Part shown: one piece after another, positions 9,646 through 31,864 of the stretch
Layout: every line of letters begins with the position of its first letter
How positions within the stretch are numbered: position 1 is the first letter of the stretch
Source: Candidatus Micrarchaeota archaeon
Lineage (GTDB): Archaea; Micrarchaeota; Micrarchaeia; Anstonellales; Anstonellaceae
DNA: 64,000 nt
NCBI GenBank assembly: GCA_021814005.1
Contig: JAKAJC010000004.1
Location: 230 to 64,229 of the forward strand
Direction: 5' to 3'
Translations under genes and position numbers: made by a program
The notes under the pieces: model-generated
What the model saw: only the letters and a program-made list of their open reading frames with translations
What the model was told of the DNA's origin: nothing
Databases searched by the model: none

Positions 9646-12600
9646 ATGTCCCGCTCTAGGCCGCCTTCATATGCAGTATATGGCATAGCCCTCATTCTCA
9701 CCCTCTCATTCCTGCTTATTCTCATTCCGCCAGCGTCTGCCGGCGCAATCTGCTACGACTCGGCCAACACGACATATGTGCAGCTCAATTCAGACTGCAA
9801 CGCGCCGGGCCAGTTCTGCAATGTCGAGGCCTATGTCTACACCATGGTTTCGGCCCCGGGAGCCACCACTCCCAAATCGGAAGGAGTCAGCGGCGGGCTG
9901 GTAATCCTCAGCTGGGGGCAGGGCACAAGCAGGGCCTGCAAAATGGTCACCGGCTCCGACGGCAAGAACACGGCCAAACTGTCAGGCCCGAACTACCCTC
10001 CCGGCGCAACCTGCTGGAACGTGCGCGCAGTCTTCTGCCCGTTCACAAAAGACAACACAATAGAAAGCGGGCAGACCACGATGGCCGCCTGCGCCGGCCT
10101 GGTCGACGACGCCGGCAAATCCATCACTCGCATTGACTGGAATCAGGCGAGTCAGCTGCCAGACTGCGCCGCGCCTGCGCATGCGGTGAACAATTCAGCG
10201 ATGAATCAGGACCTCTCGCCATTTTTCCGCCCCTCGCAGGACTCGACAATGATATGCAACAGCGGCCCTTCTGCGGGGCAGGTGTCATTCTGCTGGGGCC
10301 TGGCCCTGGTGTTCGGGCTTCTCTTCTCGGCCTCTTTCCTCTCGGGCCGCAACCCGCTGATGTTCTTTGATTTCGGGGTGGCGCGCGGCGTGCGCATGAA
10401 CCGCGCGGCCGGCATATACACTCCAATCACCCAGAACGTGTCCATCAACCCGGTTGCCATTCTGCAGGCAATCGACAAGGCCGGCAGCATGGCTTCGACC
10501 GCGGTCGGCTCAGGCAGCAAGGACGACGAATACAACAAGAACTCGGACGGCACGGAAAAAAGCTTTGGCCAGAAGATGGATGCCGCCGGCCGGAAAGGAT
10601 TTATCACAAACGCGGTCGGCAAGACAATCAACGGCCTGTCGGACAGCTTGTTCGGCAAACTGACCGGCCAGTCGAGCGACGACTTGACCAAATCGCGGAA
10701 CGCGGCCTCGAAAGGTTTCACCTTGTCCAATGCGCTCAATTCGGTCGGGCAGAGGGCCATGGAAGGAATGGTGCTCGGCGCGCTCGGCACCCTGGCGGGC
10801 GGCAAGTTCGGCAAAATCGCGCTCGCCCACACTGGCAAGGAAGTTGCCAGCCAGATGTCGAAGGCGGCCGGTCACGGCATAGCGAGCGGGCTGGAAGCCG
10901 TCACTCCCAACGCCGACCTGGCCAAGAATGAAGGCAACAAAGGCCTTAGCGACAAAGACAGGGCCGAGCAGCTGAAAGTGCAGATTGCAGCCGCGCTTGA
11001 CAAGGATGTAAGCCTCTTCAACGTCGTGTCCGACGGCCGCGGCGGTTATTCAGTCAAGATGGGCGACGTGGTGGTCGGCGGCGTCACCCGGCCGAACGGC
11101 GCTGACGGGCCGCCGCTCTGCACATTCAACGACATCAGCTCCACGGGGCTGAGAGTGTCCAACGTGCTCCAAAATCTTGCCTTCGGCTCCAGCGCCGTGA
11201 CCTGGGTAATCCTCGATCCAGGCAAAGGTGTTGTAAAGGGGGCGGATGGCAAGTGGGCGCTTGCCGACCCCAATAACAACGGCATAACCGGGGCTTCCAA
11301 CATTTTCAACCGCGAGCAGATGATTGTTTCGGCTTCCAGCGGAGGCGTGAGAATACAGCTTCCCAACGGCCAGTGGGTGTCGATGAGCGGCAGCAGCGCC
11401 TTCTCCGACCATGTCGCCACCATACTGGATTCTATCGGGCTTTTCGTTCAGGGGCAACTCAACATCTTGGATTTGCTCAAGTCCATACTTTCGCCGGTGC
11501 TGTCCGTCGGGACGGTGGCCTCCAACGCCTTTGCCGCCCAGAACCACCCGACTGTGCAGGACGCAACCCGCATTATAGAGTTCAACAACCAGAATATTTT
11601 CATCAAGTCAAGCGGCGTCTATGAAAAAGACGAAACCACCGGCGAACTCAAGCCAATCGGCACCTATGACGTGAAAACAGAAACAATCAAATTCACCAAC
11701 GACATCCATGACCCCAAAAATCCGGCAAGCGAATCTTATCTGGAGGCCGGCGCCACCTACAAGCTCTCGCCCGACGGCACCATGACACTGGTGGACAAAG
11801 CGCATCCGCCAAAAGCACTTCCGGTTGTCATCACCACTGCCGCCAAAACCTCTGTAATCACAATAGATTCAGACAGCAACATCAAGAGCAAGGGGCTTGA
11901 CGGCGAAAAGGTCGCGCCGCCGGCCGCGCCGGCCGAAAAGGTCAATGTCGCGGTCAAACTCGCGAACGTGAACGGCGGCGGGGAGGAGAAGCTCGATTTC
12001 ACAATCACCCCGATGACATCAGACCACTCCGGCACGCGCGAGCTTGTCACCCTCTCGCACTTTGACCCGGTCGCGAAAGTCAACCTCCAGGTAATCGCCG
12101 AAGTGGACAACACCAAGAAGCCGACCGATACCGACTATATCGTGGGCGTGAAAGCCATTGTCAACCGCGCGCCTGAGACCGGCGGCCATGTTGTGGTCGG
12201 AGAGGTGCTGAGCATCGGTGACAGAAACGGCACGCCGTTGAAAGACGGCAAGTTCACATTTGACAACAACACATATGGCATCGGAAGCGCCACACTCTCA
12301 AGCGATGTCAAGATTGAACTCAAGTCCCCCGCCACTCAGACTGCGCCGGTGAAAGAGATATCAATCTCACCCACTACTCCGCCCGAAAAGATGACCGTTA
12401 TTCCGCTTGGCGCAACAGCCACGAGCGGTGATCCCGACGCCAAACTTGTGCTGGCCACCACGCTTAACACCAATACCCAGTACGTGATGGACAACACAAA
12501 CGAGGCCAATCCGAAAGTGCTGGCAGTAATCAAACGCGACGAGGACGGGCACGCGACAGCATACAAACCGAATGCCGACGGCACGGCCAGCTCGACCGAA

Positions 12601-14000: not shown

Positions 14001-14032
14001 GGATTTGCAAAAATTTATTGAAGTGATTTGAA

Positions 14033-14971
14033 ATGGCAGACGAACTCGAACCGCCCGTCAACCGCCTCGGCATGAGCGCGGCGGAATTCAGCGAACTGGC
14101 GATGCGCCTGCGCGCGAAGCAGCCGCAGCTGCGCGCCATTGCCCAGCGCCTGCTGGCCGCGCGGGTCGTTATCAATTCAGTCGAGGAGCCGCTGCGCGAC
14201 GCCACAAGCAAACTGCTGGAGGCCGGGGAAATCCCGCCGGCAAAACTCAAAGACCAGTTCCTGTCCATGCGCCGCGTCAAGGAGGATGCAGAGCGCACTG
14301 CCGACTTCTACAAAGCGGCCGGCAACGCCCTCTCGTCGCTCTTTCTCTCCCCGCTGCCGCAGCAAAAGCATGCGGACGCGGCCGGCAAGAGAATGATTGA
14401 GCTTGGAGACGAATGGGAAAAATGCCGCTCAACAAATAGGCCCCGCGCCGATTACATCCGCCTGCTGCTCCGCGATTTGAGTTACACGATATTCTCCCTG
14501 CCCCTCACCCCGCCCGCCGACGGCATGGGCGCGGACCAGCGGCGCGAACTGCTGATGAGCGAAGCGATGGGGCGCGCAAAAGTCCAGACTCTTCAAACGC
14601 AAATTCCATTCGACACCGGCAACGGCATCATCTACCGCTCGCTGGAGCAGGCGCAGGCCGAAGCCGCGCAGCAAGCCGGACAAAAACTGGCGCCAATGCC
14701 GGGCCAGCCTTCGCGCCGCCCGTTGTCGGCCGTGGTCTATTCCCCTCCTCCGTCCATCGCCTCCGCTCCCCGCTCCAGAGCAAGCGGCGCCGGCATAAAG
14801 CCGGACCGCGCGGAGATGGTGCGGCAGATGGCGGTGCAATCGGCCCGCACGCGGCGCATCACTCCCGCGATAAGGCCGATTCCCCCCGCCGGAAAAACAA
14901 AATCATCCAAATCAAAATCTTCAGCGCGAAAACCAGCGGCAAAGAAAAAGAAACCAGAGCGGGGTGCCTGA
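14033..14971 (+). CDS. Hypothetical soluble protein G2 (312 aa) with a Lys/Ser-rich basic C-terminal tail
   Basis: No TM segments. The C-terminus is KTKSSKSKSSARKPAAKKKKPERGA. It lies 3 nt upstream of the first membrane-module gene. Confidence 0.6.
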   Translation: MADELEPPVNRLGMSAAEFSELAMRLRAKQPQLRAIAQRLLAARVVINSVEEPLRDATSKLLEAGEIPPAKLKDQFLSMRRVKEDAERTADFYKAAGNALSSLFLSPLPQQKHADAAGKRMIELGDEWEKCRSTNRPRADYIRLLLRDLSYTIFSLPLTPPADGMGADQRRELLMSEAMGRAKVQTLQTQIPFDTGNGIIYRSLEQAQAEAAQQAGQKLAPMPGQPSRRPLSAVVYSPPPSIASAPRSRASGAGIKPDRAEMVRQMAVQSARTRRITPAIRPIPPAGKTKSSKSKSSARKPAAKKKKPERGA

Positions 14972-14974
14972 GCA

Positions 14975-16141
14975 ATGGTCGATTTTCTGGTGGCTGTCCC
15001 ATACGGCATAGCCATCGGCACCGGAATCGTCGCATTCGCCTACATGATAGGCTCGCTTCTGCAGTCGGACGCCATGAAATCGTGGAGCCGCCTTGAGCTT
15101 GGAGAGCTTGTGGTCTCGGCCATTCTTGTGGTGCTGGTTGCCGAGGCGCTCAGTCCGGCGGGGCAGGCCGGCATCATCAAGGCCTTCACCGGCGTGTCGA
15201 TGGGAATAGACGAGCTGCAGTCGAGGATGTATGTCTACATGGAGCTGCCGCTGGAAAAAGTGACAGAAGCCGTCGCAATAAGCAGCATGCATCTCAGCCG
15301 CATCATTTCCTACAATTACAACTACCAGCTGCCAATTCCCTACTTTTCGCCCACCGGCTCATCCAGCCCGGGCGCGGGAGCGGGGCCGCTGCAACTGTCG
15401 GTAATGATTGGCATGGATTCCACCGCTCTCAATCTCATGCTGGTCCATGCGGTCAAGCTGGTGTTTGTCTTCCTGATTTTCCTGCTGGGCACGTTCTTCA
15501 TGCCGCTCGGCATCATCCTGCGCTTCATCCCGCCTTTGCGGAAAATCGGAAGCATGCTGCTGGGCACGGGCCTGGCCGTCTATCTGGTGTTTCCCATCGC
15601 CATCTTCTGGGGCACGTCACTGCTGGCATTTTCGGTGAGCCCGCCCGATTACGACGCTGGCCGCCTGGTGCAGGACCCCGGCCGGCCTCCAACTTCCGGA
15701 TTCGTGTGCAGCACCGTCACGTCCGCCCTCTACAGCGCGGGCGAGCAGATTCCCGCATGGATAATCGGCGGAATAGTCTGCATCCCGACAATCATCACCG
15801 GCGGATACGTGGCCTGCGTCGGCACGCCCGGCTCGCCTCCGACATACGGGGGCGGAGTTGCCGGCATCGTTGCATACCTGATGTGGCTGTTCCAGTACGG
15901 CTTCCCCATCGCCACAACACAGTCGCTCAAGAGCGCGGGCGACACGCTGACGCCGGACTTCGTCTCCTCCGGCGTGTACCAGCCCATGGTGGGCTACCTT
16001 CTTCCATTGGCGGTGGTGCGAAATCTTGCGGTTCTTTTCATCGTAATCCTCGCGCTGGCGGCAACAATAATCCTGGCGCGCCAGTTCGCGCAGGTGCTGG
16101 GCGCGGAAGGGCAGTTCTACGGGCTGACAAAACTGGTGTAA
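14975..16141 (+). CDS. Polytopic membrane protein, paralogous module family member M1 (388 aa)
   Basis: Shares three motifs with five neighbours. The TM1 end is AYMIG, followed by KSWSRLEL. The central motif is FMPLGIILRFIPPLRKIGSMLLGTGLAVYLVFP. The C-terminal motif is YLLPLAVVRNL...LGAEGQFYGLTKLV. Confidence 0.7.
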   Translation: MVDFLVAVPYGIAIGTGIVAFAYMIGSLLQSDAMKSWSRLELGELVVSAILVVLVAEALSPAGQAGIIKAFTGVSMGIDELQSRMYVYMELPLEKVTEAVAISSMHLSRIISYNYNYQLPIPYFSPTGSSSPGAGAGPLQLSVMIGMDSTALNLMLVHAVKLVFVFLIFLLGTFFMPLGIILRFIPPLRKIGSMLLGTGLAVYLVFPIAIFWGTSLLAFSVSPPDYDAGRLVQDPGRPPTSGFVCSTVTSALYSAGEQIPAWIIGGIVCIPTIITGGYVACVGTPGSPPTYGGGVAGIVAYLMWLFQYGFPIATTQSLKSAGDTLTPDFVSSGVYQPMVGYLLPLAVVRNLAVLFIVILALAATIILARQFAQVLGAEGQFYGLTKLV

Positions 16142-16144: not shown

Positions 16145-17197
16145 ATGGAAAACACGGCAGGAAAAATCGGTTCGGTTTCCCGTTTCGGGTTCGCCCCACT
16201 CGCAGTCCTCTCCCTGCTGTTTCTAGTCTCATCCTCTTCGGCCATCTTCGAGCCGCAGCTCTCGTGCTTCAACCAGACCTACAACATGGTGTATGATTTC
16301 GGCTCGCCAATCATCGCCGTCATTTTCATCATGGGCGTGCTCATCGCGATTGCGTACATGCTCGCGCAGCTTTTGGAAAAACCCGAGCTGTCGGTGTGGG
16401 CCAAGAGCGAAATAGTCACCCTGGGCTTTTCCATCCTTCTCATCGGCGCGGTGGTGGGCACGTTCGGACTTTCCTGCACAATCTCGAACTCGATGGTGTT
16501 TTCCGACTCGCGCGAATTCGCCAACAGCAGCGTGGTGGGGTCCGGCGCGCCGGCCAACGTTTTCACCAGCCCCGCGCAGAGGGCGGTGCAATATATCGAC
16601 AAGCTCACGCAGACCTACGGCCTGCGCCTCGCATCCGACCTCACCCGCCAGGCGGTGAACGACCAGCTCGGCGCGGTGGCATACGCGTACTGGTCCGTGC
16701 CGGTGCTTGACGGCGGCGGGCTTGCATACAAAGCCAACCAGCGCGCATGGGCGGCGCAGAAAGACATTCTCATCGACCTCTACATGCCGATGATGATTTC
16801 GCTGCAGGTGCAGAAATTCATGCTCAACCTGGCCATGGTCGGCGTGCTGAACATTCTTCTGCCGGCCGCGCTGCTTTTGCGCACGTTCTTCTTTTCGCGC
16901 GACATCGGCAACCTGCTCATCGCGCTCTCGTTTGCAATCTTCTTTGCCCTGCCGGTAGTCTATTCGTTCGGCTTCGAGGCGTCGGCAAATCTGCAGAAAC
17001 AGCTCTGTCCGTCGGGCTGCGACCCGCTCAATCCGTTCGGGCAGCTGAACATAGTCAAGGACCGCGTGGTTGGCGACAGCTATGCGAGAATCGGCTTCAT
17101 CTCCACACAAGCGATTTTAATCCCTAATCTCGCGCTGGTTGTGATGATAACCATGACCATGGCCCTAAACAAGGCCTTGAGAGGGTTCACAGGATGA
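16145..17197 (+). CDS. Polytopic membrane protein, paralogous module family member M2 (350 aa)
   Basis: The motifs are AYMLAQLLEKPELSVWAKSEI, LLPAALLLRTFFFSRDIGNLLIALSFAIFFALP and a C-terminal ILIPNLALVV...LRGFTG. It overlaps G5 by 4 nt (ATGA). Confidence 0.7.
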   Translation: MENTAGKIGSVSRFGFAPLAVLSLLFLVSSSSAIFEPQLSCFNQTYNMVYDFGSPIIAVIFIMGVLIAIAYMLAQLLEKPELSVWAKSEIVTLGFSILLIGAVVGTFGLSCTISNSMVFSDSREFANSSVVGSGAPANVFTSPAQRAVQYIDKLTQTYGLRLASDLTRQAVNDQLGAVAYAYWSVPVLDGGGLAYKANQRAWAAQKDILIDLYMPMMISLQVQKFMLNLAMVGVLNILLPAALLLRTFFFSRDIGNLLIALSFAIFFALPVVYSFGFEASANLQKQLCPSGCDPLNPFGQLNIVKDRVVGDSYARIGFISTQAILIPNLALVVMITMTMALNKALRGFTG

Positions 17198-20100
17198 GAA
17201 ATGAAAACGAAAACCCGGCGCGCCGCGAATCCGGCGTTTGCTTTGCGCCAGTCAATACGGCGCCAGCCGGCTTCCTGCCGCTGCACGCGCCGCATGTTTT
17301 CCTCTTCCTCCTCTGCCTTCTCTGTATCTCTCCAATAATTTTCTCCCAAAACACCACAATCCAGCCCGTGCTCACCGCCCAGAACGCGACTTTCGGGTTC
17401 GACAATTACGTGCGGGCAACCCTCGCGGCCGCCGCCCTCATGGCCGCAATCATGGCTCTGGTCTACATGGCAGGCATATTTTTCCAGAGCGAGGATGCCA
17501 AACAGCTGGCGCGCACTGAAATTCTGCAGACTGCTCTCAGCGTGATAATAGTCGCATTTCTTCTGGCCATTCTGCTCGGCGTCGACACCGGCCTTCGCCT
17601 TACCTCGGCCGAAATAGTCTCGCCCTGCGTGGGCCGCACCCTGCCCGCAAGCATCACGTCCGCCACTCTTCTCAACCAGTATGCATTCTGCTATGCGCAG
17701 GGCCTCAACGAAATGGCCATCGCGCAGGGCGACACCACAATCCGCAAGTCTGTCACATTTGCCAAGAAAGCGTATCGCATGGAAGGTTTCCAGACAGATT
17801 TGTGGTGGCTGCTCTACGGCGGCCTGACGCGCCGGCCCGATGCCAACCTGCGCCTTGACTCGGAAATCATGGGACAAGAGTTCACTCTTCTCACGTCATT
17901 CATGGTGAGCCTGCAGGGGCAGCTGGCATTTCTGCAATATATCGTGCCCGCGCTCGCGCCGGCGCTGCTTTTCCTTGGCGTCATCCTCCGCTCGCTTTTC
18001 TTCACCCGCAAACTTGGTGGCATGATGCTGGCAGCGGGAGCCGGATTATTGCTGGTGTGGCCGGCCACCTATCTGCTCTCATGGTTCACATTGCAGGTTG
18101 CGGTGTTCGGGCCGTCGGTGATGGGCGAGGAGCCGGGCTCGACCTGTCCAACCTCATGCAAAATCCTTCCCCCCGCCGGCTACAACATCTCAACAGCAAA
18201 TCCCGATTCATGGGGCAGTCCGCCTGCGGGTTCGCCTTATGCAACCGGCGCAATCAGCGCAAAGCAAATGGCAAGCGCCGGCGGCAGCTCGATTGCGCCT
18301 GACATCGGCGACGAGGCGGCCTGGAAACTGCGGGGCGTCCAGACCTGTTATCCGCAATACAATTACACTGAAGACAAGACAACCGGCACCCGCACATACA
18401 CTCTGCCGGCCGGCTATTCCAGCAGCGTGCCCGTGCAGTCTTCGGACAAGTGCCCCTCGGAGTGCCGCTTCCTTCCCACCCCGACGGATTTGAACTGCGA
18501 CCTGGCCGCCTGTGACAACATACCAATAGCCTGCAAGGCAATCAGGGCCATGAACCTTTCCACCTCGCCCCTGCCGAACCCGCCGGACAACTGCAACTCG
18601 TGCACCAGCTGCCCGGCGTTCTGCCGCACAATTTTGCCGCAGGTGAAATATGCAAACCCCGCAAACCCGGCCGCCGGAGTTGTGCCGACAACGAACGCGA
18701 ATTCATGCTCGGCCAATCCCGGCAATGCAACCCTATGCCCGCTCTACTGCCGCTCCTATTTGCACACGGACGCCAGCAACACGATTTCCTATTCCACTCC
18801 CGACTGCCAGGCCGCATGCCAAGCGACTCTTGACAACAAGAAAGACGCGGCAACGAGCCAGCCCGACTGCATGCTCGGCATTCCGGCCGCCATGATGGAG
18901 TGCAACACCCCCAACGTGTGCGGCCCTGCCATGAACCTTGAGGCTGCCATCGCCTCGGGCCGCACCGACCTCTGCCCGATTGAATGCCGCGTGAATTTCA
19001 ATTCATCTGGCACCGAGGACAGATACAAGGACCCGACATTCAACCAATACTGCACCGGCTCCGGCAAGTTCGGCACCGCGTGCGACACGCAATGCCCGAG
19101 CACGTGCAAGGTGAAAGCAAGCGCCGAGAACGCGGCGCTGCCAAATTCATTCTCGCTGGGCGTGCCCAACTCGTTCATAGTTTCGACCGGCGCAGGCAGT
19201 GTTCTTTGCGCGGCAGCCCCCACTTTCACAAACGGCCAGATGGACTCGAGCGTGAACGGGCAGTGCGCACGCTGCCCGCTCTCATGCCGCCTGCGCAACC
19301 CCTCCTCCATCCTCGACCTTGACAACAACCACAGCACTTACTTCTTCTCGCAGTCGCATTATGCCCTCACCTGCAATTACCGCAACACCACCCCAATCAT
19401 CCTGTACTCCGGCGCGTGCAGAAATTCCACATTCCCGCCCGGCTGGCTTGCGTTCGCTTCCGAAGATCCATCCGGCATTTCGTTGAGCCAAATCGGCCGC
19501 GGCCCGCCGGAATGCGCGCCAACCGCCCGCATTTACCTGCGCATGGATTCGTCAGACCCGCTCTGCCCGCTCTTTCTGGCCCCAATCCCGCCTTACATCA
19601 AGGACGGCACTCTTTCAAACGACCCTTCCAATTCCGCGGTGTCTGCCATCATTCCGCCAAACACCGACGTGTCGGCCGAATGCTCCACTCCCGATGCGCA
19701 GAAATACTGCCTCGGCAAAGACCCGCAGGGCCAGCCCTATTGCGACATTTCCTGCCAGCCAGACCGCGCCGTGAACGGGCCGTTCTACTGCCACTTGACC
19801 GACCTCTACAGCCCGCTCTCCAGCATTCCCGACAACACGCAGCGCTGCGGCGCCTGTTCGAGCCCGGCAGCAGACAATTCCAAGGGGCCGCAATGCCAAG
19901 TCATGCTGACAAGCGGCAGCACCCTCTATCTGCCCAAAGGCTGCGACCCGTCCTGCGCGCCCGGCTCGCTTGACACTGCGACCGGAATAATCCTCAACCC
20001 CGACACAGACCCCAAGTCGAGGGCTTCATGCGGCGGCTTCTGCTATCCGCGCCTGCCCATCCCCTCGTGCAGCGCATATGCCCCCGCCAGCACAACCAAT

Positions 20101-22718: not shown

Positions 22719-25700
22719 ATGGAGAAAAAGAACCGGCCGCATTCACCGAAGTTCTCATCGCCATCGCCCATGCCGCACCTTGCGCTGTTATTTCTCTTGG
22801 CCGCAGTTCTGCTCGCTCCATTTGTTTCGGCAGACATAACCGCAACAATTGATTACAACAGCGCCCCTCCCCCGCCCGCCTCGCCCTGGCTCACCATAAC
22901 TCCGATGACTGTGGGCGTGAGCGCCGACTGCGGCACCATACCGCCCTGCGTGCCGCCGTTCAGAATCAATTTCCAGTTCGTCTGCGGCGGCACCCCTGTG
23001 CAGGAAACATTCACAAACGTCCCGCCGGCCTCCCGAACAGCATACACCTATTATCCAAACTCCGACCCCGCATGCCGCGAGCCGACGCCGCTGAATTCCA
23101 TAATCACAATCACCGACACTACTGGACAATCATTTTTCACGCAAAGTTTCCCCGTAGCTCTGGCAAATGGTACAGACACCACTCCGCCGGGCATCTCGTG
23201 GAATCCCGTGCCGCCGCCAGAATATGATGCGGGCGCAACCATCAGCTTCGGCTTCACAGTCACCGACCCTGACGACAACACCAACGCGATTCCGACATTG
23301 TATCCAAATGTCGCCACGGCCGAGGTGGAAATCACCGACTTGGGAAACGGCCAGGTCTATGGGCCATATGACATGGGCCCGTTCCCTCCACCGAACGGCT
23401 GGAGCACCCAAGTCTTTCATATAGAAGGCACCCCCAGCGCCGACCACACTGTTGAAATCAACTGCAGCCGCCTCAACTGCGTCGGAGATTTGCAAATAAA
23501 AGTCAGGTCCCACGACCCTGCGGGCCTTGGCATTACCCTGCCGCCAATGATTGTGCGCAGGCGCGGCGGCCTGGTTCTTCCCTCTCCCATATTGGGCATC
23601 ATCCCGCCCGCACCCGTCTGCCCCAACGCGGCCATCCGCGCCATGGCAAACCAGCCGTCTGGCTCCCCTGCAATAGACAGCCATGAATACAGCTGGTCCA
23701 TCACTCCAAATCCTCCGGTGCAGATAGATACTGTGCCCGACACCGCCAAAACGGGCGCCACTTCAGACACATTCGACTGCGCGGCGCGCAACTGCCAGAA
23801 CGGCCAGACCGTGTCAGTAAGCGTGCTCGCCATCGCCGGCGCCCAGCGCTCCCCTCCCAACGCCACCCTGATTCTCGTCGACGGCAGCAGCCTTGACTGC
23901 AGAATGCCGGCAGCCCCGCTTCTCACCAACCAGACAATATCCATCTCGCCCTTCAACGCGATAGTGCTGGCAAACCAGAGCAACAACGATCCGCGAGCCG
24001 TGCTCCACCGCTATGTCTGGACCATGGCCGACGGCACAGTCATCGAATCCCCGCTCATGCCCCTGCCAATCCAAAATGTCACATCAGCTCCCGTGCCCTG
24101 CGCCGCGAATCCAAACCTCTACTGCCCGTCGGGAGGAACCGTCCTTCTCACGGTCTATTCATACACTGCGCAGAATGTGCAATCCCAGCCAGCATTTATC
24201 TCCATCTTAATTCCGGCGCGCTCAGCCCTCAATCCGCCGGTGGTTGTCACCAAGCCCTTCAGCCCGTATGACAACGACACCATCGTGCTTGTTGCAAACA
24301 ACCAGAACGAAGAGGTGGACCGGCACCAGTACCGCCTGCTCATCATCAATGCGGACGGCACTATATACCAAGAAATCGATGCTCCAATCTACGACACTGT
24401 TTCCACAACCGCGGCAGACAAACACACCACCACATCCAAGCCATTCACCTGCACGACAAGCGTATGCAGGGGCCGCTTTGCCAACATAACCGCCCGCGCC
24501 TACAATTCCCTTGGCTGGTCAGACTGGTCTCCCTGGCTGAGCGTCCCATTCGGCCCGCCGCCGATTCCTGCGCCAATACTTGTGCGCATCGACCCGATTC
24601 CACCCGGCAATTCGATGCTGTCAGACATCAATTCCGGACTTGGCGCGCTCCTCAACACCTCGCTTGCCTACAGCTTCACAATAACCCCGCCCGCCGGCCA
24701 GCCGCCGTTCAACGACTATATTCCAACCCTCACAGTCAACGGCGCAGACGCGCCGGTTTCATCCAGCCGCTCGGGCAACAATCTCATCATCACTCTGGCC
24801 TGCACCCCGTCATCATGTCCGAACGGCTCAATCCTCACATACAAGGTAATCGGCGTGCAGGCGGGAGCGAATTCCACTCCCCTGTATTTCTCGCTTGTAG
24901 TTCCGCAGGCGAGCGGCATGCCCGCGCAGGTGGGCGTCATCTGTTCCGGCGCCGAACTGCAAAGATGGCTGCAGGTGATGGCCATCGGCATGATGGCCCT
25001 TCTCGCCCTTATCGCGCTCGTCTATATGATTGGCGAGGCGCTGCACCACCCGCAGCTTTTGGAATGGTCCAAATCAGAAATCGGGCACGTGGGCATGACC
25101 ATCATCCTCTTCTTCCTCATCGTATGGCTGATTCAGTTCCAGTGCAACCTGACGGTGGGCGAATTCCTCAACTGGTCTGGCTCGTCAAACCCCCTCTACT
25201 CGTCAGGCATGACGCTTTCACAGGCAGGTCTCAAATCGCTTGAATGGGGCATCACCCAGACGCGGCTCACCCTCGTGGCCATGCGCTACGAGATGGGAGT
25301 GCTCAACATGCGGGCCACCTATTCCTCCTACTCCACCCAGTTCCCCGGAATGGGCGGCAACGGCTACAGCTTCATGCCCTTCTCGGGCGATTACACCCTG
25401 CTCGGCTCGTTCGGCATGCTCACCAACCTCAACTCCACTTTCCTGCTCGCGCTCCTCTTCCAGCTATTCTCGCTGTTCTTCTTTTCCTCTTCCAGCGGGC
25501 TGTTCATATTCCTCGTGCCGGTCGGCCTCATACTGCGCTCGGTTCCGTTCATACGCGGATTCGGCGGCTCGCTGGTGGCCATCGGCATCGGCTTCTACAT
25601 ATTCTATCCGATTCTGCTTGCCTTCACCGGCCTTCTGCTCGCGCCGCTCTACTCGGGCATTGACTCCACCAGCCAGCTCGGCATCGCCGACGCCTCGCAG

Positions 25701-25991
25701 CTGGAGGCAAAAGAGCTTGCGATTCACACGCCATTCAGCAGCACCGGCCTTGCTGGCGACAACATTTTCAGCTACAATCCGGGCGACCCGTATCCGGGGC
25801 CGCTGATGCCCACCGCCGGCAAGGACTCGCCGCCGAAGCTGGGAATATATTTCAATCTAACTGCCCTGAATTTCCTGCGCGCCATCCTCATTCCGACCGC
25901 AGGGCTGATAGTGACCGTGTCATTTGTGCGCGACCTCGCGGCCATTTTCGGCGAAGAGGTGGACGCGTCGAAACTGATTGCCATGATTTAG
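22719..25991 (+). CDS. Giant surface glycoprotein G7 (1090 aa). It has a signal peptide, a roughly 700-aa sequon-rich ectodomain and a C-terminal paralogous membrane module.
   Basis: The signal peptide is LALLFLLAAVLLAPFVSADI. There are many N-x-S/T sites (NGT, NCS, NQT, NAT, NVT, NDT, NIT, NTS, NGS, NST). The module motifs are LVYMIGEALHHPQLLEWSKSEI, LVPVGLILRSVPFIRGFGGSLVAIGIGFYIFYP and a C-terminal ILIPTAGLIV...FGEEVDASKLIAMI. Its ATG abuts the stop of the upstream gene. Confidence 0.75.
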   Translation: MEKKNRPHSPKFSSPSPMPHLALLFLLAAVLLAPFVSADITATIDYNSAPPPPASPWLTITPMTVGVSADCGTIPPCVPPFRINFQFVCGGTPVQETFTNVPPASRTAYTYYPNSDPACREPTPLNSIITITDTTGQSFFTQSFPVALANGTDTTPPGISWNPVPPPEYDAGATISFGFTVTDPDDNTNAIPTLYPNVATAEVEITDLGNGQVYGPYDMGPFPPPNGWSTQVFHIEGTPSADHTVEINCSRLNCVGDLQIKVRSHDPAGLGITLPPMIVRRRGGLVLPSPILGIIPPAPVCPNAAIRAMANQPSGSPAIDSHEYSWSITPNPPVQIDTVPDTAKTGATSDTFDCAARNCQNGQTVSVSVLAIAGAQRSPPNATLILVDGSSLDCRMPAAPLLTNQTISISPFNAIVLANQSNNDPRAVLHRYVWTMADGTVIESPLMPLPIQNVTSAPVPCAANPNLYCPSGGTVLLTVYSYTAQNVQSQPAFISILIPARSALNPPVVVTKPFSPYDNDTIVLVANNQNEEVDRHQYRLLIINADGTIYQEIDAPIYDTVSTTAADKHTTTSKPFTCTTSVCRGRFANITARAYNSLGWSDWSPWLSVPFGPPPIPAPILVRIDPIPPGNSMLSDINSGLGALLNTSLAYSFTITPPAGQPPFNDYIPTLTVNGADAPVSSSRSGNNLIITLACTPSSCPNGSILTYKVIGVQAGANSTPLYFSLVVPQASGMPAQVGVICSGAELQRWLQVMAIGMMALLALIALVYMIGEALHHPQLLEWSKSEIGHVGMTIILFFLIVWLIQFQCNLTVGEFLNWSGSSNPLYSSGMTLSQAGLKSLEWGITQTRLTLVAMRYEMGVLNMRATYSSYSTQFPGMGGNGYSFMPFSGDYTLLGSFGMLTNLNSTFLLALLFQLFSLFFFSSSSGLFIFLVPVGLILRSVPFIRGFGGSLVAIGIGFYIFYPILLAFTGLLLAPLYSGIDSTSQLGIADASQLEAKELAIHTPFSSTGLAGDNIFSYNPGDPYPGPLMPTAGKDSPPKLGIYFNLTALNFLRAILIPTAGLIVTVSFVRDLAAIFGEEVDASKLIAMI

Positions 25992-26004
25992 GAGAGAACC
26001 TGCC

Positions 26005-27198
26005 ATGACAAAACAAAAAATAAAATCAAAAACAAATTCGGCCCCCATGTCGGGATTGCTTTCGGCCAGCCGCGCACGTTTCACCCTCTCCTCCTTCTTC
26101 CTCACATTCTTCTTCATCCTCTTCCTCTCGTCAATTCTCGCGGCTCTCGACCCCAACGCCCTCACATGGAGCAATCCCGACAAGCTCATGGTCCGCTCGG
26201 CCGGCTACTTCCAGCCAACCTCGCCCAACAGCTGGTACCGCATGGTCATTCCCGCTCTGGCCATCTGCATTTTTGCCAACACTCTTGTCTATGTGTTCGG
26301 GCGCGTTGCGAACGCGCCGCACGTGGTCCAGTTCGCGAAATCAGAATTCTACCAGGTCACGGCCTCGGCAGTCATGATATTCATTTTGGTGGCCGCGGGC
26401 GCGGAATCATTCCGCTATATTCAGGACAGCGGCCTGCTGCCCGCAGGCACCACGACTTTGTGCTACGGACAGGCGATGTCAGTTTGGGATGTGGGGCCGT
26501 TCGGCATAATCCGCTGCAAGCTGCAGGAGAAAATCGACTATGTTGAAGACCTCTACAATCAGGCATGGACTCTCAACGCCAATGTCGAGCCTCTCACCAC
26601 CTATTCGCTCTACCTCTTCAACATACCCGTCTATGTGTGGGACTGGAACACCGCCCTGCATTCGCAGATGGAGCAGGCCCACTTCATAGCCAACAAGCTC
26701 ACGCCAATCGGCATCAGCCTTCACGCGCAATTCATGTTTGCAGAATATCTTGCCCAGAACATGCTCAACGTATTTTTGCCGGTCGGCCTGCTGCTGCGCA
26801 TCTTCCCCATCCTGCGCGGCATCGGCTCTCTCATGGTGGCCATCTCAATCGGCTTCTTCTTCGTGTTCCCCATCGCATACATTTTGATGGACCCGACAAC
26901 CGTGCGGCCCGACCCTGCCACCCTCATACCGGCGGTCAATGACAACAAGGCCAACGTGTGCTACACTTCGTTCAGCGGCATGGTGACCACCTACACCCAA
27001 ATCGCCCCGAAGGTGGCGCAAAAGGCGGAGACGGCCGACATCACCCAAATAGGCTCGGAACTTGCCAAACTGCAGATAGAGGCGTTCTTCTATCCGCTTG
27101 CCGCGCTTGCCACCGCGCTGGTGTTCATCTCCATCGCCACGCCAATCTTGGGCGGCGACTCGGGGGAAATCATGCACTTCCTCACAAAGGTGATATGA
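26005..27198 (+). CDS. Polytopic membrane protein, paralogous module family member M6 (397 aa)
   Basis: The motifs are LVYVFGRVANAPHVVQFAKSEF, FLPVGLLLRIFPILRGIGSLMVAISIGFFFVFP and a C-terminal FFYPLAALATALVF...LGGDSGEIMHFLTKVI. Confidence 0.7.
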   Translation: MTKQKIKSKTNSAPMSGLLSASRARFTLSSFFLTFFFILFLSSILAALDPNALTWSNPDKLMVRSAGYFQPTSPNSWYRMVIPALAICIFANTLVYVFGRVANAPHVVQFAKSEFYQVTASAVMIFILVAAGAESFRYIQDSGLLPAGTTTLCYGQAMSVWDVGPFGIIRCKLQEKIDYVEDLYNQAWTLNANVEPLTTYSLYLFNIPVYVWDWNTALHSQMEQAHFIANKLTPIGISLHAQFMFAEYLAQNMLNVFLPVGLLLRIFPILRGIGSLMVAISIGFFFVFPIAYILMDPTTVRPDPATLIPAVNDNKANVCYTSFSGMVTTYTQIAPKVAQKAETADITQIGSELAKLQIEAFFYPLAALATALVFISIATPILGGDSGEIMHFLTKVI

Positions 27199-27199
27199 G

Positions 27200-30100
27200 T
27201 TGGGAAAAGAAAAAGAAATTGAGAGCATGCGCGCACAGGCGCCGCACCCGTCGCGGGAATCGGACAGTGGAACAAATATCAATCTGTTGTTTTTGGCCGC
27301 CATCTCCCTCTCCCTTCTCTCCCTCATTTTCCTCTCGGGCTGCGTGCAGCCCAACTCCAACCTCTCCTACGGCGCGTGCTGCATGCAGAGCAATTCGTTC
27401 TATACCTGCCAGGTGCGCACCGACGCCAACGGCACGCAGCAGCGGGATTCGAACGGCAACCTTCTCATCGACGGCTGCGGCCCCTGCATTGCCGTTGCCA
27501 AGAACGGCACGGTTTACAACTCGTCCGGCCCAACCGACGCCGCGCTCTGCACAAACAACTGCAACTTCAAGCAGTCCAACTGCACCAATTTCGACGGCAA
27601 AAACACCTGCTATCTTGTGGACAAGAACATGCAGACAACCAACGAATCGGTGGGCCCGATTTGCATGGCCGCAACCGACCCGTGCGTGCAGAACAACTGC
27701 ACTGCCATGGTTTACGGCAAGCCGCTTCCATCCCCCAAGCGCAGCATCAACTCCCAGTCGGTGCAGCAGTCCAACAACCCGGACGGCAACGCGTTCAAGC
27801 AGGACGCGGCCAACCAGAAGACCGGCCTTGTGGGCCGCATCATGCAGTTCAGCCAGTTCAACACCCGCCTTGCCCGCCTCTTGAAAAGTCCGGACTGGTC
27901 TGTGAACACTTTGCGCCTCGGCCTCCAAGGACAATTTTCCGACTACGACCGCGCGCGTTTCTATCTTCCGCCCTCGGATTACTTCTGCCCGCAAAACAAC
28001 CCCAACGCAATAGTTGACCGCTACACCGCCTATCTGGACGGGTTGAGCGCGCTCCCGCCTTTCCGCTCATACTACACTGTCAATTACGCAACAACCTGCA
28101 GCCCCGGCCACAAAAAACCCCCGTATGGCGGCTGGTATTCAACATGCACCTGCACTCCCTCCAGCCCTCCCGCCCCGCCGTGCGGCAAGGATTTCATGGG
28201 TTCTTCTGCCCTTGATGCAGAAGACATGTGCAACTCCTCCTGCACGAATTTCAGCCGTGTATACAGCACGCCCAATTTCAAGAATCCGCTCAGCCTCTGC
28301 CGCCTCGAGCCGGCATCAGGCGCCAATCTCTCCTACTTCTACTGCGATGTCAATCCCGGGCTCAAGTTCACCATCGCCGACCCGTCCGACCAGCTGCGCG
28401 CATATCTTTCCTGCCAGAAAGCATGCAGTTACAGCCAATACCGCACATGCAGCCAGAATCAGGACCTTCTGACCTACAACGCCAATCTCCACCCCAATAT
28501 TTATTCGCCCTCCAATTGGCCTCCACAAACACCTCCGGCCGGCTCAATCCAGCCGTTCATCGACATCGACCAATATGCCAAGGCGCTTGCGAACGCTTAT
28601 CCGACTCCGACCGGGCCGGCCTGGTGCCCCGCGCTTGTGGCGCTAAGACCCGACCCTGCCAAGGAGGCGGCGATGAAGAATGACCCGCGCAATTACTACA
28701 AATGCCTTCTGCCCGAACCCAACAGTGCCGGCGCCAACCAGACCATAGCCGCCTACGGCATCACGGCCGACCAGTACAACACCACCTATATGAGCGAGGG
28801 CATCAAGCCCGGGCCTGCCGGCGGCAAGGTGTTTGAGTGCACCGGCGGCGGCGACTGCCTCTCCGGCATCTGCGACAAATCCACCTATTCGCGCACCTCA
28901 TGCTTCCTCAAAGACGGCTCTGCGGTTGACTGCGCCTGCCGCTGGGTAACCAATTGCAAGCTCGCGTACCAATGCTCGGGTTACGAAGCCCGCAGCATCA
29001 GAAAAGACCAGTGCGAGGTGAACCTCAACAACTGCCAGGAGGCACAGGGAGGCTCGGACTATCCGGTGCTGATGTGCGAGTACCGCATCAATCCGCTCAC
29101 TCCCCAGACCGCCAATCCGCCCATCCATGGCCTGCGCACCCCCTACGCCTCCAGTGGCAACTATGTTTTCAACGACGGCCGCAACGGCTACGGCATTCTG
29201 CATATCGAGGAATTCAACAAATACATCGACGCTGCGGTCGCGGACGCCGAGCTTGCCACGGTGCAAAGGCCCTCCACTTCGCTCGAATTGTGCCCAAGCC
29301 GCGTGCGCCGGCCATGCGCCTCTTCAACAGAACAGGGCTGCTATGTGAGGAACACCAATCCTCCCGACGTGTCGGTGCTCTGGCAGCATGACGGCGACAG
29401 CGACGTATACCAGAACATACCGGCCTACACGCCCACCTACGACGCCTGCCCAAGCGGCGGCACGCTGTCCAATGTCTCTGGCTGGAAAGACACTCCCAAG
29501 GCATTTGGCGACTATTTGCGCGACAGTTCCTACCCCTCGCGCGAAACATTTGCTCTCGTGCCCACGCAGCAGGCGGTGGCCGGGCCGGGAGGCGCGCATT
29601 TCATCACCACCAGCCGCTATGTGACATGGCAGAATGACAACTGCTATTTCTCGCTCTCCGGCTACACTCTGAGCGGCTCAAAATGTCCGGCAGACCAGGT
29701 CCGCTTCCCGCTCTTTCAGGCCTGCAACATGAGCGTTAATTCCGAATATTTCAACAAAGCCGCAGGCAGCAGGAGCTATCCTTATCAGGACGCGTATCAG
29801 GCCGAAATATACAATGCCCGCGGGCAGGATGCGGCCGGCTCCGCGTTTGATGTGAAATATGTGGACGGCTATTCCTACGACCCAAACAACAACGACACCC
29901 TTTATTCCTACGGCGGCTCTGACCCCTACCGCATAGACAAGACGTGGGCAATCTACAGTTTCGGCGCCTGCCAGGTCCAGCCAAGCACCCCATCCGCTCC
30001 GGCGGTGTCGGGCAAGAGCCCGCCGCCGGTGGTGTTCAGCTACGGCATGTGCCGCTCGTGCGGCACCCTGCTGTCCATGGCTTACCAGCCGGTGAAGGAT

Positions 30101-31864
30101 TCGCCTCTGGCCTTCCCATACGACTTCAACGGCTACTGCCCCTCGGGCTGCAAAAAGTATATTTGGAACGGCTTTCTGAATATGGGGCCGAAATTCTCGT
30201 GGTGCGCCGAGTGCCCGTCCAGCTATCCTGCGCAGACTTTCAGCCAATTCGCAAGAGGCTCGCCGGCAATGTATCCTGATTTCGGATTTCTGGCCGACAA
30301 AATCAACGAATACCAGTCATCCAACATCCTGCCAGTTCTGGATGTGCGCAACTACCACTATGCCGACGGGGGCAGCACTGTTGTGAGAGTGCCGTTCTCA
30401 AATCTCTGCCAGACGCTCGGCGGCAAGAGGGGCGGCTCCGGCGCAATCAACCAAAACGGCGGCGTGTATCAGGGTTCTGCCTGGGACTGCACCCTTCCCG
30501 CACAGCCCGACTGGCTGCTTGCATATCTGAACAAGAACCACTCGGCCGCGGTTCTTATCGTGGCCAACCTGCCCCCCGCCGCAATCGACCCGGCTGTCGT
30601 GCAGGCGGAGGTGGACCGCTCTGCGAAGGCCTGCCCCAACTGCCTGCGGGCGCTCGAATACGTCCCGCTTCTCACGCCTTCCGACGTGACGGGGGCAGAC
30701 TACAATTATCCTTCAGCCCTCAACGACTCGGTGGCTTCATACACGAACGTGTCATTCAATCCCCTGCGCGTCAGCACGCCTCCCGAATGGCTGTCCAACC
30801 GCGGCAAGAAGCCCGACAACGTGCGGCAGGTGGACATGATAGTGCTTGAGCTTGACATGTCCGGCGTGGACATGACCAACGAGACGACCGTGGACAACGC
30901 AGTCCTCGCTTATGTCAACCTCTCGCGCCGCCTGCTGCAGCACGTGGGCTGGCCGACAATTTGGAAAATCAATTACAGATTCGGCATGTACCCCTCCGCG
31001 CTCACCAACGACGTCCTCTACCGCCGCATCATAGCGCACGAGCGCGAGATGACGCTGGCAGGGGTGAGCGGCGTGCTTATGCCGGCCATGGACAACGGCG
31101 ACCCGGACGGGCACATCACCGGCCCGCCCACCGAGCAGTTCGGCCGCCTTCTTCCCAACACCGGCGGCTTGAGCGGCTCGAGCCTTATCCGCGCATCCGG
31201 CACGCCTTTCTGCGCCCTGCAAAATGCCTCGGCCGAATTCCTGCATCCCAAGATGATGGTCGGCACCCAGAAAATTCTGGCCAAGAACAACTGCTCCTGC
31301 CTGCCGTGCAGCGACATGGACCTTCTGGCCGGCAACTGCAACAACAAGTGCTATGACGGGCTGGCCTGCGAGGCTCCCGGCGGCGGCACAAGCGCCGGCA
31401 GCAAGTGCGAGCCATACTGCGTGCGCAACAGCTTCTGCCAAAACAACCTGTGCAACGGCACCCAGATTGGAAGCAAGACAACAACCTGCACCGCCCTGCG
31501 CCCCACCAACCTGCCGCCTGTCTCCTGCGGCGCCAACAACGCCCTCTTCCCCAAGTGCGACGTGCTGGCCGATGCCGCGCTCAAAGACATAGCCGCATTG
31601 CCGCAGGCGCCGCAGCTTATCGGCGGATTGCCGCCGGGGCAGGGCTGCTGCCTGTCGCAGAATCGCACCTATTACACCTACCGCTCTGCCGGTTCTGCCG
31701 CCACTTCAGCAGAGCCGGTCATTTTCCCCGGCTACGGCGCCAACACCACAGACTGCGGGCGCGTGCCGGACCCGGGCGACCCCTATTCCGACCCGTCCGC
31801 AAACTGCGCCGTGCCGCCTGCTCCGCTAAGCAATGTGATGTGGACCTGCACCCCGCCGAGATGA
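27200..31864 (+). CDS. Giant Cys-rich secreted lipoprotein-like protein G9 (1554 aa) with no membrane module
   Basis: The track gives a TTG start; the ATG at MRAQAPH is an alternative. The signal peptide ends in the lipobox-like LSGC. It is extremely Cys-rich, with CxxC, CPxxCK and CPxC pairs. It has many sequons and a hydrophilic C-terminus. It is the last gene of the cluster. Confidence 0.75.
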   Translation: MGKEKEIESMRAQAPHPSRESDSGTNINLLFLAAISLSLLSLIFLSGCVQPNSNLSYGACCMQSNSFYTCQVRTDANGTQQRDSNGNLLIDGCGPCIAVAKNGTVYNSSGPTDAALCTNNCNFKQSNCTNFDGKNTCYLVDKNMQTTNESVGPICMAATDPCVQNNCTAMVYGKPLPSPKRSINSQSVQQSNNPDGNAFKQDAANQKTGLVGRIMQFSQFNTRLARLLKSPDWSVNTLRLGLQGQFSDYDRARFYLPPSDYFCPQNNPNAIVDRYTAYLDGLSALPPFRSYYTVNYATTCSPGHKKPPYGGWYSTCTCTPSSPPAPPCGKDFMGSSALDAEDMCNSSCTNFSRVYSTPNFKNPLSLCRLEPASGANLSYFYCDVNPGLKFTIADPSDQLRAYLSCQKACSYSQYRTCSQNQDLLTYNANLHPNIYSPSNWPPQTPPAGSIQPFIDIDQYAKALANAYPTPTGPAWCPALVALRPDPAKEAAMKNDPRNYYKCLLPEPNSAGANQTIAAYGITADQYNTTYMSEGIKPGPAGGKVFECTGGGDCLSGICDKSTYSRTSCFLKDGSAVDCACRWVTNCKLAYQCSGYEARSIRKDQCEVNLNNCQEAQGGSDYPVLMCEYRINPLTPQTANPPIHGLRTPYASSGNYVFNDGRNGYGILHIEEFNKYIDAAVADAELATVQRPSTSLELCPSRVRRPCASSTEQGCYVRNTNPPDVSVLWQHDGDSDVYQNIPAYTPTYDACPSGGTLSNVSGWKDTPKAFGDYLRDSSYPSRETFALVPTQQAVAGPGGAHFITTSRYVTWQNDNCYFSLSGYTLSGSKCPADQVRFPLFQACNMSVNSEYFNKAAGSRSYPYQDAYQAEIYNARGQDAAGSAFDVKYVDGYSYDPNNNDTLYSYGGSDPYRIDKTWAIYSFGACQVQPSTPSAPAVSGKSPPPVVFSYGMCRSCGTLLSMAYQPVKDSPLAFPYDFNGYCPSGCKKYIWNGFLNMGPKFSWCAECPSSYPAQTFSQFARGSPAMYPDFGFLADKINEYQSSNILPVLDVRNYHYADGGSTVVRVPFSNLCQTLGGKRGGSGAINQNGGVYQGSAWDCTLPAQPDWLLAYLNKNHSAAVLIVANLPPAAIDPAVVQAEVDRSAKACPNCLRALEYVPLLTPSDVTGADYNYPSALNDSVASYTNVSFNPLRVSTPPEWLSNRGKKPDNVRQVDMIVLELDMSGVDMTNETTVDNAVLAYVNLSRRLLQHVGWPTIWKINYRFGMYPSALTNDVLYRRIIAHEREMTLAGVSGVLMPAMDNGDPDGHITGPPTEQFGRLLPNTGGLSGSSLIRASGTPFCALQNASAEFLHPKMMVGTQKILAKNNCSCLPCSDMDLLAGNCNNKCYDGLACEAPGGGTSAGSKCEPYCVRNSFCQNNLCNGTQIGSKTTTCTALRPTNLPPVSCGANNALFPKCDVLADAALKDIAALPQAPQLIGGLPPGQGCCLSQNRTYYTYRSAGSAATSAEPVIFPGYGANTTDCGRVPDPGDPYSDPSANCAVPPAPLSNVMWTCTPPR

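Follow-up and report, generated by a model that had tools for sequence, protein, structure and literature searches.

A conserved nine-gene locus of Micrarchaeota with six paralogous membrane modules and giant ectodomains: a possible VirB6-like envelope platform

How DPANN archaea are physically connected to their hosts, and by what route lipids, metabolites or DNA reach them, is still to be answered. A block of nine genes, here denoted G1-G9, in the genome of a Candidatus Micrarchaeota archaeon raises this question in a concrete form: what kind of envelope system do these genes encode, and could it be involved in contact with a partner cell? The block occupies positions 9646-31864 of a 64,000-nucleotide stretch of the contig JAKAJC010000004.1 (assembly GCA_021814005.1; hereafter, the window, to which all positions refer). 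An initial annotation of the window had portrayed the block as a single unit that combines cytoplasmic, membrane and very large extracellular parts, and this portrayal holds: the unit is conserved, with most of G1 and the whole of G2 predicted to be cytoplasmic. Here we describe the core of the locus, six paralogs of one membrane module, trace the distribution of the module family, and weigh the possibility that the locus encodes an envelope-spanning platform resembling the VirB6 stalk of type IV secretion systems (T4SS).

Six paralogs of a five-helix membrane module

The membrane proteins encoded by G3-G8 are paralogous: all six share one module of about 350 amino acids (aa) with five transmembrane (TM) helices. 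Pairwise BLASTP comparisons within this set yield E-values down to 1e-9, and one family hidden Markov model (HMM) matches all six proteins, with scores from 134 to 347 bits. The shared motifs include aLVYMiG...KSE(i/l) at TM1 and loop 1, LLPLG(i/l)(i/l)LR..P..R..G at TM3 and loop 2, FP in TM4, and LG(G/A)E...(G)L.K(l/v) after a C-terminal helix. The residues that vary hardly or not at all (Glu41, Arg183, Arg189, Gly192 and Pro207, in the G3 numbering) are located at or near the predicted cytoplasmic face, as is the acidic tail of the module. The alternation of membrane modules with giant ectodomain proteins that was suggested in the initial annotation is not what these genes encode; instead, there are six paralogs, two of which (G5 and G7) bear giant ectodomains.

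The module is predicted to have its N-terminus outside the cell, five TM helices and its C-terminus inside, and several features of the sequences agree on this topology. Hydropathy analysis reveals five hydrophobic helices per module. Across 100 sequences of the family, lysine and arginine make up 15-20% of the residues in the two short loops versus 5% in the two long loops; the cysteines of these 100 modules are concentrated in the long loops, being very scarce in loop 1 and absent from the C-terminal tail. Both the giant insert of G5 and the N-terminal extension of G7 land on the predicted outer side. G3, the minimal copy, lacks a signal peptide. An AlphaFold2 model of G3 built from 100 aligned family members (predicted local distance difference test score, pLDDT, 94.2; predicted template modeling score, pTM, 0.82) is all-helical, and the long helices that extend from TM2 and into TM3 would form an extracytoplasmic hairpin. 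The first model of G3, built from an alignment of 15 sequences, was mediocre (pLDDT 70.8), and a Foldseek search with that model against the PDB retrieved no significant match.

Giant ectodomains and cytoplasmic components

An example of a drastically enlarged module is G5, in which a cysteine-rich insert of about 1000 aa is accommodated in the predicted extracellular loop between TM4 and TM5. The module HMM matches this protein in two pieces (residues 20-414 and 1344-1409). The insert, at about residues 318-1321, has 85 cysteines, includes 11 CPxxC[RK] motifs at irregular spacing, which are kept in the ortholog from a related locus (L007), and matches no known domain. In G7, a signal peptide and a repetitive N-terminal ectodomain of about 700 aa with paired cysteines precede the module, which spans residues ~719-1090. 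Proteins of the G7 type range from 437 to 1098 aa across lineages (975 aa in locus L007, 638 aa in L011 and 437 aa in L012), with the module remaining constant. G9 starts with a signal peptide that contains a lipobox-like LSGC motif and continues into a cysteine-rich, predicted extracellular body of about 1500 aa; the protein has 75 cysteines and 25 sequons.

The architecture of G1 is as the initial annotation had it, namely, a membrane-anchored protein with a huge cytoplasmic part. A signal-like N-terminus is followed by a cysteine-containing ectodomain of about 180 aa (10 of the 12 cysteines fall within residues 36-216), a single TM helix at about residues 213-231, an Arg-rich segment and some 1200 aa that are predicted to be cytoplasmic. 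The juxtamembrane motif of G1, FLSGRNPLxFFDFGVxRGVRxNRAAGxYTPxTQNVS, is highly conserved. G2 is predicted to be soluble, having neither a signal peptide nor a TM helix, and contains a linker rich in Pro and Ser as well as a Lys-rich tail. Conservation of this tail is poor; the C-terminal (K/R)RGA is common to the proteins from the window and from loci L009 and L011, and the copy in L010 ends otherwise.

Distribution, synteny and phylogeny of the locus

The initial annotation had proposed a search for the module in public archaeal genomes. When 1.84 billion cluster representatives were scanned exhaustively with HMMER, 2954 members of the module family were recovered at E<=1e-3, 2196 at E<=1e-10 and 287 at E<=1e-30. 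The family extends beyond this locus, and we regard it as a real and large one that has not been described. Many of the 2954 representatives show either a split match, as in proteins with a G5-like insert, or a G7-like N-terminal extension. The other searches had a narrower reach: a word-index protein search, which is insensitive, produced 11 matches for the module profile and 2 for G1, and a scan of a genome collection with a narrow alignment identified 4 loci. Of 20 relatives that we looked up, all those with a name are annotated as hypothetical or uncharacterised and come from Micrarchaeota or an unclassified archaeon; their labels are mostly Micrarchaeota, Anstonellaceae and 'Ca. Gugararchaeum', one being merely 'uncultured archaeon'. 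Relatives retrieved from species-representative genomes bear, without exception, the title 'Candidatus Micrarchaeota archaeon'. Viral contigs encode no relative.

The gene order G1-(G2)-G3-G4-G5-G6-G7-G8-G9 is kept in Micrarchaeota loci (L007, L009, L010, L011/L013, L012 and L014), at 35-72% identity. Because the same genes recur in the same order in Micrarchaeota, at 35-65% identity, the block is not a chance arrangement. Moreover, psmA, NMD3 and DUF2070 recur as neighbours in relatives; in L013, for example, NMD3 and DUF2070 are located downstream, as in the window.

Orthologs of G1 are present in L007, L009, L010 and L011 and, placed after G9, in L015 and L016. Orthologs of G2 were detected in L009, L010 and L011. 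L007 has no separate G2, and the G2 profile matches the C-terminal part of the G1 ortholog of this locus in two colinear segments (16.9 bits), which tentatively suggests a G1-G2 fusion; if true, the fusion would place G2 together with the tail of G1 in the cytoplasm. G9 orthologs follow G8 in L013 (32% identity over the full length), L014, L015 and L016. Among the modules, G3 is 36-65% and G4 42-72% identical to the respective orthologs, and G8 is the best conserved paralog across clades.

Every complete array examined (the window, L011/L013, L012, L015, L018 and L023) contains exactly six modules, and both the gene order and the six-module array persist at identities as low as 26%. In a neighbor-joining (NJ) tree, G3-G7 each cluster with the genes at the corresponding positions of L007 and L013, and G8 clusters with its counterpart in L013. 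Therefore, the module was duplicated before these lineages diverged, and the copies are non-redundant. In L016 (about 3600-9600), some 6 kb of other genes, a part of these on the opposite strand, are located between the G7-like and G8-like genes, so that the array can be interrupted. Directly 5' of the first module in L008 (15-404), there is a homolog of the Zn-ribbon/TM protein encoded at 14921-15271 of L023 (28% identity, E 2e-8), which hints at intermediate cluster architectures.

Distant arrays are linked to a VirB4/HerA-like ATPase

The most divergent relatives were found in metagenomes from the JGI (L018-L024), where the modules are 26-29% identical to G8; the guanine plus cytosine (GC) content is 41-46% in L018, L019 and L023. 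The two contigs that are long enough, L018 and L023, each carry six tandem modules that score 106-230 bits against the family HMM. In L018, L019 and L023, the sixth module, which in the NJ tree groups with G8, is followed by a pair of paralogous proteins with two TM helices each (268 and 279 aa) and then by a P-loop ATPase of 512-514 aa; from the sixth module through the ATPase, the gaps do not exceed 11 nucleotides (nt), so that the modules and the ATPase are translationally coupled. Further 3' in these arrays, the genes encode a small duplicate of the ATPase C-terminus, a Zn-ribbon/TM protein, a coiled-coil protein and a membrane protein of about 800 aa. An hhalign comparison of G1 with the 268/279-aa proteins was negative, and we rejected their homology.

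The array-linked ATPase matches DUF87, AAA_10, the TraG P-loop domain and TrwB. Its NCBIfam matches, all far below the cut-offs, are CedD (E 6e-19) and CedB (E 4e-18) as the best-scoring models, followed by HerA, VirB4-like CD1110 and TraC. Among PDB sequences, the matches are to HerA proteins, and the longest matching stretch is the VirB4 ATPase domain 4ag5. In L018 (13090-16257), the ATPase is split directly after the P-loop by an intein of about 540 aa (Intein_splicing and LAGLIDADG domains).

The window itself contains one HerA-family gene (38962-40506, plus strand), which encodes a 514-aa ATPase with a HAS barrel and DUF87. We considered this protein as the missing motor of the G1-G9 system and rejected it: it matches DNA-repair HerA models over the full length (E 6e-51 and 3e-50, far below the cut-offs) and is only ~22% identical to the array-linked ATPase. 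The position of the gene, separated from the block by tRNA-His, NMD3, DUF2070, tRNA-Phe and a LonB-like gene, also speaks against a component of the system. No NurA-like partner adjoins this gene, and the protein also matches defence-associated HerA models in PADLOC. Just 5' of it lies a region of about 1 kb without a convincing gene (37925-38960), which includes two copies, 90% identical, of a 60-nt tandem repeat (38606-38725) and an exact 25-nt direct repeat at 38810 and 38911.

Searches against known families

None of the nine proteins matched Pfam, NCBIfam, PADLOC or PDB sequences, and the search against PHROGs returned one match only, at E 0.006. A Pfam scan of 100 members of the module family was likewise negative, and the module profile found nothing among PDB sequences. 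In these five databases, then, no component can be assigned to a described secretion, pilus, ATP-binding cassette (ABC) or surface layer (S-layer) family, in line with the initial annotation. Specifically, Pfam and NCBIfam gave no match in the nine proteins for the ATPase and TM domains of ABC transporters, for the T2SSE ATPase, the T2SSF platform protein and prepilin-like subunits, or for a two-helix pilin of the VirB2/CedA1/TedC kind, and the NCBIfam models of Ced components did not match any of the nine. Foldseek matches to ABC transmembrane domains appeared only at E>0.2, with template modeling scores (TM) <0.16. There is no space for a pilin gene in the block because all gaps are 76 nt or shorter. 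The S_layer_N domain PF05123, carried by the S-layer protein of Micrarchaeum harzensis (bioRxiv 10.1101/2021.04.28.441871), has no match among the nine proteins. Full-text searches of the literature retrieved no description of the G1-G9 locus or of the module family.

Operon organization and genomic surroundings

The nine open reading frames (ORFs) on the plus strand have the starts and junctions given in the initial annotation (Table 1); seven of the junctions, among them an ATGA overlap and a TAAATG abutment, measure 14 nt or less. All eight internal genes are preceded by a Shine-Dalgarno-like match of 4-7 nt located 10-16 nt 5' of the start, the best of these being AGGTGAT, 12 nt 5' of the TTG start of G9 (27200); single 4-nt matches are weak taken individually. 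The alternative, later starts, that is, those of G7 and G8 in the public annotation of the metagenome-assembled genome and an in-frame ATG of G9 at 27227, lack such a match. In contrast to the internal genes, no Shine-Dalgarno-like match was found 5' of G1. In archaea, a TATA box typically precedes the start codon of a leaderless mRNA by about 27 nt, and because the putative promoter element TTTTATAAA lies at about this distance from the G1 ATG, a leaderless start of G1 is plausible. The overall pattern of start signals fits one polycistronic unit. The putative internal promoter in the G1-G2 gap is not conserved: in one relative the two genes abut, and in another they may be fused. In the window, this gap contains a degenerate 16-nt tandem repeat (3.2 copies, 13952-14000).

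Table 1 Features of the G1-G9 block and its boundaries (positions in the window)
Feature	Coordinates	Strand	Length	Junction with the next gene	Remark
TATA-box-like element TTTTATAAA	9615-9623	+			read from sequence; ~27 nt 5' of G1 ATG (9646)
G1	9646..13956	+	1436 aa	76 nt	ORF at the coordinates of the initial annotation
G2	14033..14971	+	312 aa	3 nt
G3	14975..16141	+	388 aa	3 nt	module paralog 1, minimal 5-TM copy
G4	16145..17197	+	350 aa	4-nt ATGA overlap, 17194-17197	module paralog 2
G5	17194..21423	+	1409 aa	5 nt	module paralog 3
G6	21429..22718	+	429 aa	TAAATG abutment, 22716-22721	module paralog 4
G7	22719..25991	+	1090 aa	13 nt	module paralog 5
G8	26005..27198	+	397 aa	1 nt	module paralog 6
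G9	27200..31864	+	1554 aa		length counted from TTG
tRNA-His (GUG)	31947-32058	+			Rfam RF00005, 47.5 bits; downstream boundary, not a component of the system

The end of the block at tRNA-His and an oligo-T stretch was likewise recovered, the latter as a run of seven T residues at about 32062-32068. The tRNA gene was missed by ARAGORN, because of an intron of about 40 nt, and was identified with Rfam. This intron sits 3' of the anticodon stem, away from the canonical 37/38 site, and G-1 is apparently encoded in the genome, at 31946. The GC content of the block had been thought to match that of the surrounding chromosome; it is in fact slightly higher (0.56-0.62, compared with 0.50-0.59 elsewhere in the window), yet the block is not foreign.

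The 5' flank, on the minus strand, consists of psmA, a lipobox protein, SBDS, an Rrp4-like KH protein and two RNase PH genes, in agreement with the described position next to the proteasome and exosome genes; on the 3' side, tRNA-His is followed by NMD3 (minus strand) and the DUF2070 membrane protein. The lipobox protein (7966-8739, minus strand; 257 aa), which has no family match and carries a lipobox-like FIGC motif, is encoded between psmA and SBDS and is thus embedded in the string of proteasome and exosome genes. A 1375-aa protein (50-4177, minus strand), a further large protein without assignment beside core genes, ends the exosome-L37ae-RpoP gene string. It has no match in Pfam or NCBIfam, a hydrophobic patch at about residues 930-1010 and a tail that is rich in Lys and Glu and resembles a coiled coil. 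G3 and the SBDS protein are sequence-identical on DAHXII010000005.1 (GCA_027332545.1), on DAHXIJ010000003.1 and in ENA assemblies.

A possible platform for contact or exchange, and its rivals

We tentatively favour the reading, to which we give somewhat less than an even chance, that the locus encodes a dedicated envelope-spanning platform, similar to the VirB6 stalk, for contact or exchange with a partner cell. One copy each of G3-G8 would assemble into a pseudo-six-fold platform in the cytoplasmic membrane, and the TM2-TM3 helical hairpins of the modules would make up a stalk or channel that occupies the space beneath the S-layer. The distal, cysteine-stabilised part would be made of the G5 insert, the N-terminal array of G7, the N-terminal domain of G1 and the lipoprotein-like G9. 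The conserved cytoplasmic face (the Glu of loop 1, the R-x5-R-x2-G of loop 2 and the acidic LGGE tail) might serve the cohesion of the ring or the docking of the cytoplasmic domain of G1 along with G2 and, in arrays that have one, of the hexameric VirB4/CedB-type ATPase. Akin to the VirB6 stalk or channel of T4SS and to the Ced and Ted systems, such a platform would be a site of contact or exchange, most likely, with the host, whatever the direction and nature of the transport might be. In the distant relatives, it would be driven by the operon-encoded hexameric ATPase of the VirB4/CedB/HerA type, and in the lineage described here, by an ATPase encoded elsewhere, or else it would not be driven. 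What the sequences show is the paralogy, the topology, the conservation, the synteny, the ATPase linkage of the distant arrays and the lack of any known family; stoichiometry, assembly, homology to VirB6, transport and relevance to a host are our inference.

The relation of the module to VirB6 is a lead rather than a result, because the Foldseek search with the first model came back empty and the profile-profile comparison was negative. In the latter, an hhalign run of the 100-sequence family alignment against TrwI and 60 of its relatives, the probability was 0.5% and the E-value 0.12; homology at the sequence level was rejected on this ground, the sensitivity of the test being limited by the shallow TrwI alignment (sequences at least 50% identical). 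The lead comes from the identical predicted topology, the linkage of a VirB4-type ATPase in the distant operons and a weak VirB6-like fold signal, with VirB6 ranking second already for the weaker first model; every sequence test contradicts it. In our reading, the locus would work like a VirB6-centred, T4SS- or Ced-like platform, yet it is not a demonstrable member of the VirB6 family. A relation to archaeal conjugation or Ted systems, which would count against the initial annotation, is hinted at by the fold signal and by the VirB4/CedB-type ATPase of the distant arrays, but membership is absent at the sequence level and the locus itself encodes no ATPase.

Several further observations weigh against the platform reading. 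PF04610 (TrbL/VirB6), which all 120 listed TrwI relatives carry (215 were found), matches neither any of the nine proteins (E<=1) nor any of the 100 family members (E<=10). The block (9646-31864) includes no small pilin-like gene and no ATPase, G1-G8 have no Walker A motif, and the only HerA-family gene of the window is of the repair type and is located 7 kb away, behind unrelated genes. No T4SS is known to contain a counterpart of G1, G2 or G9. In the NJ tree, the paralogs of the ATPase-linked distant clade show no clear one-to-one pairing with G3-G7, with G8 alone being paired clearly. Finally, we infer, rather than observe, the hetero-hexameric stoichiometry.

The lack of an ATPase in the locus and of Walker A motifs in G1-G8, along with the negative sequence tests for VirB6, would suit a structural surface organelle unrelated to T4SS, in which the modules anchor adhesin-like ectodomains for binding of a host or matrix, so that no translocation takes place and no ATPase is needed. 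The Cys- and sequon-rich ectodomains, which vary in length by lineage while the module stays constant, point in the same direction. We nevertheless regard such an organelle as rather unlikely. Six distinct paralogs in strict order, of which four (G3, G4, G6 and G8) carry no large ectodomain, are more than anchors need; the most conserved residues are on the cytoplasmic face; the 1200-aa cytoplasmic domain of G1 and the cytoplasmic G2 are themselves conserved; and the distant arrays are operon-coupled to a hexameric ATPase of the translocase type. Another alternative without a T4SS connection, and in our estimate an unlikely one, is a cell-cell junction machine of a categorically new kind, specific to Micrarchaeota, with a hetero-hexameric ring of six ancient paralogs and giant disulfide-rich ectodomains; it would constitute the symbiont side of the host connection, such as the docking barrel of the Micrarchaeon ARM-1 discussed below.

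The locus could also perform a housekeeping role in envelope biogenesis or act as a scaffold that is not specific to a host, for instance, as pillars of the S-layer or as an insertase or export route for giant Cys-rich proteins. The chromosomal site among core genes (proteasome, exosome, NMD3), which is kept across the phylum, would fit such a role, and the anchoring of the S-layer in Micrarchaeota is called unknown (figure legend, PMC8975820). The helical hairpins together with the ectodomains might bridge the pseudoperiplasm of Micrarchaeota, which is 20-25 nm wide (bioRxiv 10.1101/2021.04.28.441871). We consider the scaffold improbable, given that there is no similarity to PF05123, that the ATPase of the distant arrays belongs to a translocase family and is no known assembly factor, and that nothing in the data links the locus to S-layer genes. 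An origin from an integrated conjugative or other mobile element, active or remnant, with a T4SS-like apparatus is largely refuted and, in our view, highly improbable. It would draw on the VirB6-like fold lead and on the VirB4-like ATPase that accompanies the distant arrays and in one case bears an intein. However, the chromosomal neighbours are the same in several lineages, the GC content is close to that of the surroundings, we saw neither an integrase nor a relaxase nor repeat boundaries, no relative was found on viral contigs, and the paralogs group by position in the NJ tree, G3-G7 with L007 and L013 and G8 with L013.

For the connection between Micrarchaeota and their hosts, the locus supplies nine candidate genes and a family of ~3000 clusters that is absent from Pfam and NCBIfam, and the question becomes testable through gene candidates. 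Should the VirB6 relation prove true, the T4SS-like machinery of archaea would extend from the Ced and Ted systems of Thermoproteota to DPANN, in a hetero-hexameric version of a subunit so far known as a homo-oligomer. Should it fail, the locus would represent a new kind of envelope machine.

Comparison with known systems

Studies of Agrobacterium tumefaciens reportedly place the N-terminus of VirB6 outside and the C-terminus inside, with five TM helices and a large loop that follows TM2. The module agrees with a topology of this type in its hydropathy, in the helices of the AlphaFold2 model, in the distribution of positive charges and cysteines, and in the positions of the G5 and G7 additions. 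Like the VirB6/TrbL proteins (for example, TrwI of R388, PDB 7o3v chain F), it is polytopic and all-helical, with the predicted N-out/C-in arrangement of five TM helices and a large extracytoplasmic segment after TM2, and its distant relatives are operon-linked to an ATPase of the VirB4 superfamily. Unlike these proteins, it has neither a PF04610 match nor profile-profile similarity to the family. Macé and colleagues reportedly described VirB6, in 2022, as a homo-pentamer, whereas G3-G8 are six different paralogs, and the locus encodes no VirB2, B3, B5, B8 or B4. Topology models of VirB6 are discussed in PMC2653234.

The Rvh T4SS of Rickettsiales offers a parallel for an array of this kind. 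Rickettsia carry five tandem, extended VirB6 paralogs (RvhB6a-e, 674-1154 aa), with the remaining T4SS genes scattered in the genome (PMC2653234). As at the locus described here, divergent paralogs with large lineage-specific extensions stand in tandem in the genome of a symbiont, which for Rickettsia is an obligate one; there, the paralogs are those of the channel subunit, and the genes for the ATPases lie in other parts of the genome (PMC2653234). In contrast to the products of G1-G9, however, the Rickettsia paralogs have a recognisable VirB6/TrbL domain and are accompanied by the rest of a T4SS.

The DNA import systems Ced (Sulfolobales) and Ted (Thermoproteales) are, like G1-G9, archaeal and chromosomal, and combine a VirB6-like polytopic protein with a VirB4/HerA-like ATPase; the distant arrays similarly pair the module with an ATPase that matches CedD and CedB. 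Ced and Ted possess a single CedA or TedA, which has 6-7 TM helices, along with a small pilin of the VirB2 kind, whereas the locus described here encodes six 5-TM paralogs, giant ectodomains, G1, G2 and G9, with no pilin and, in this lineage, no linked ATPase. The components of Ced and Ted themselves show no detectable sequence similarity to each other (PMC9905601).

Finally, cryo-electron tomography of the Micrarchaeon ARM-1 and Metallosphaera javensis revealed host nanotubes that enter through a 21-nm barrel-like docking platform (PMC11329633). The components of the barrel are unknown according to the authors, who considered both its construction by ARM-1 and an origin from the host (PMC11329633). 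The barrel belongs to the same phylum as the locus and is an envelope-spanning assembly under the S-layer at the site of host contact. By this analogy, the G1-G9 system is a candidate source of the docking barrel of ARM-1.

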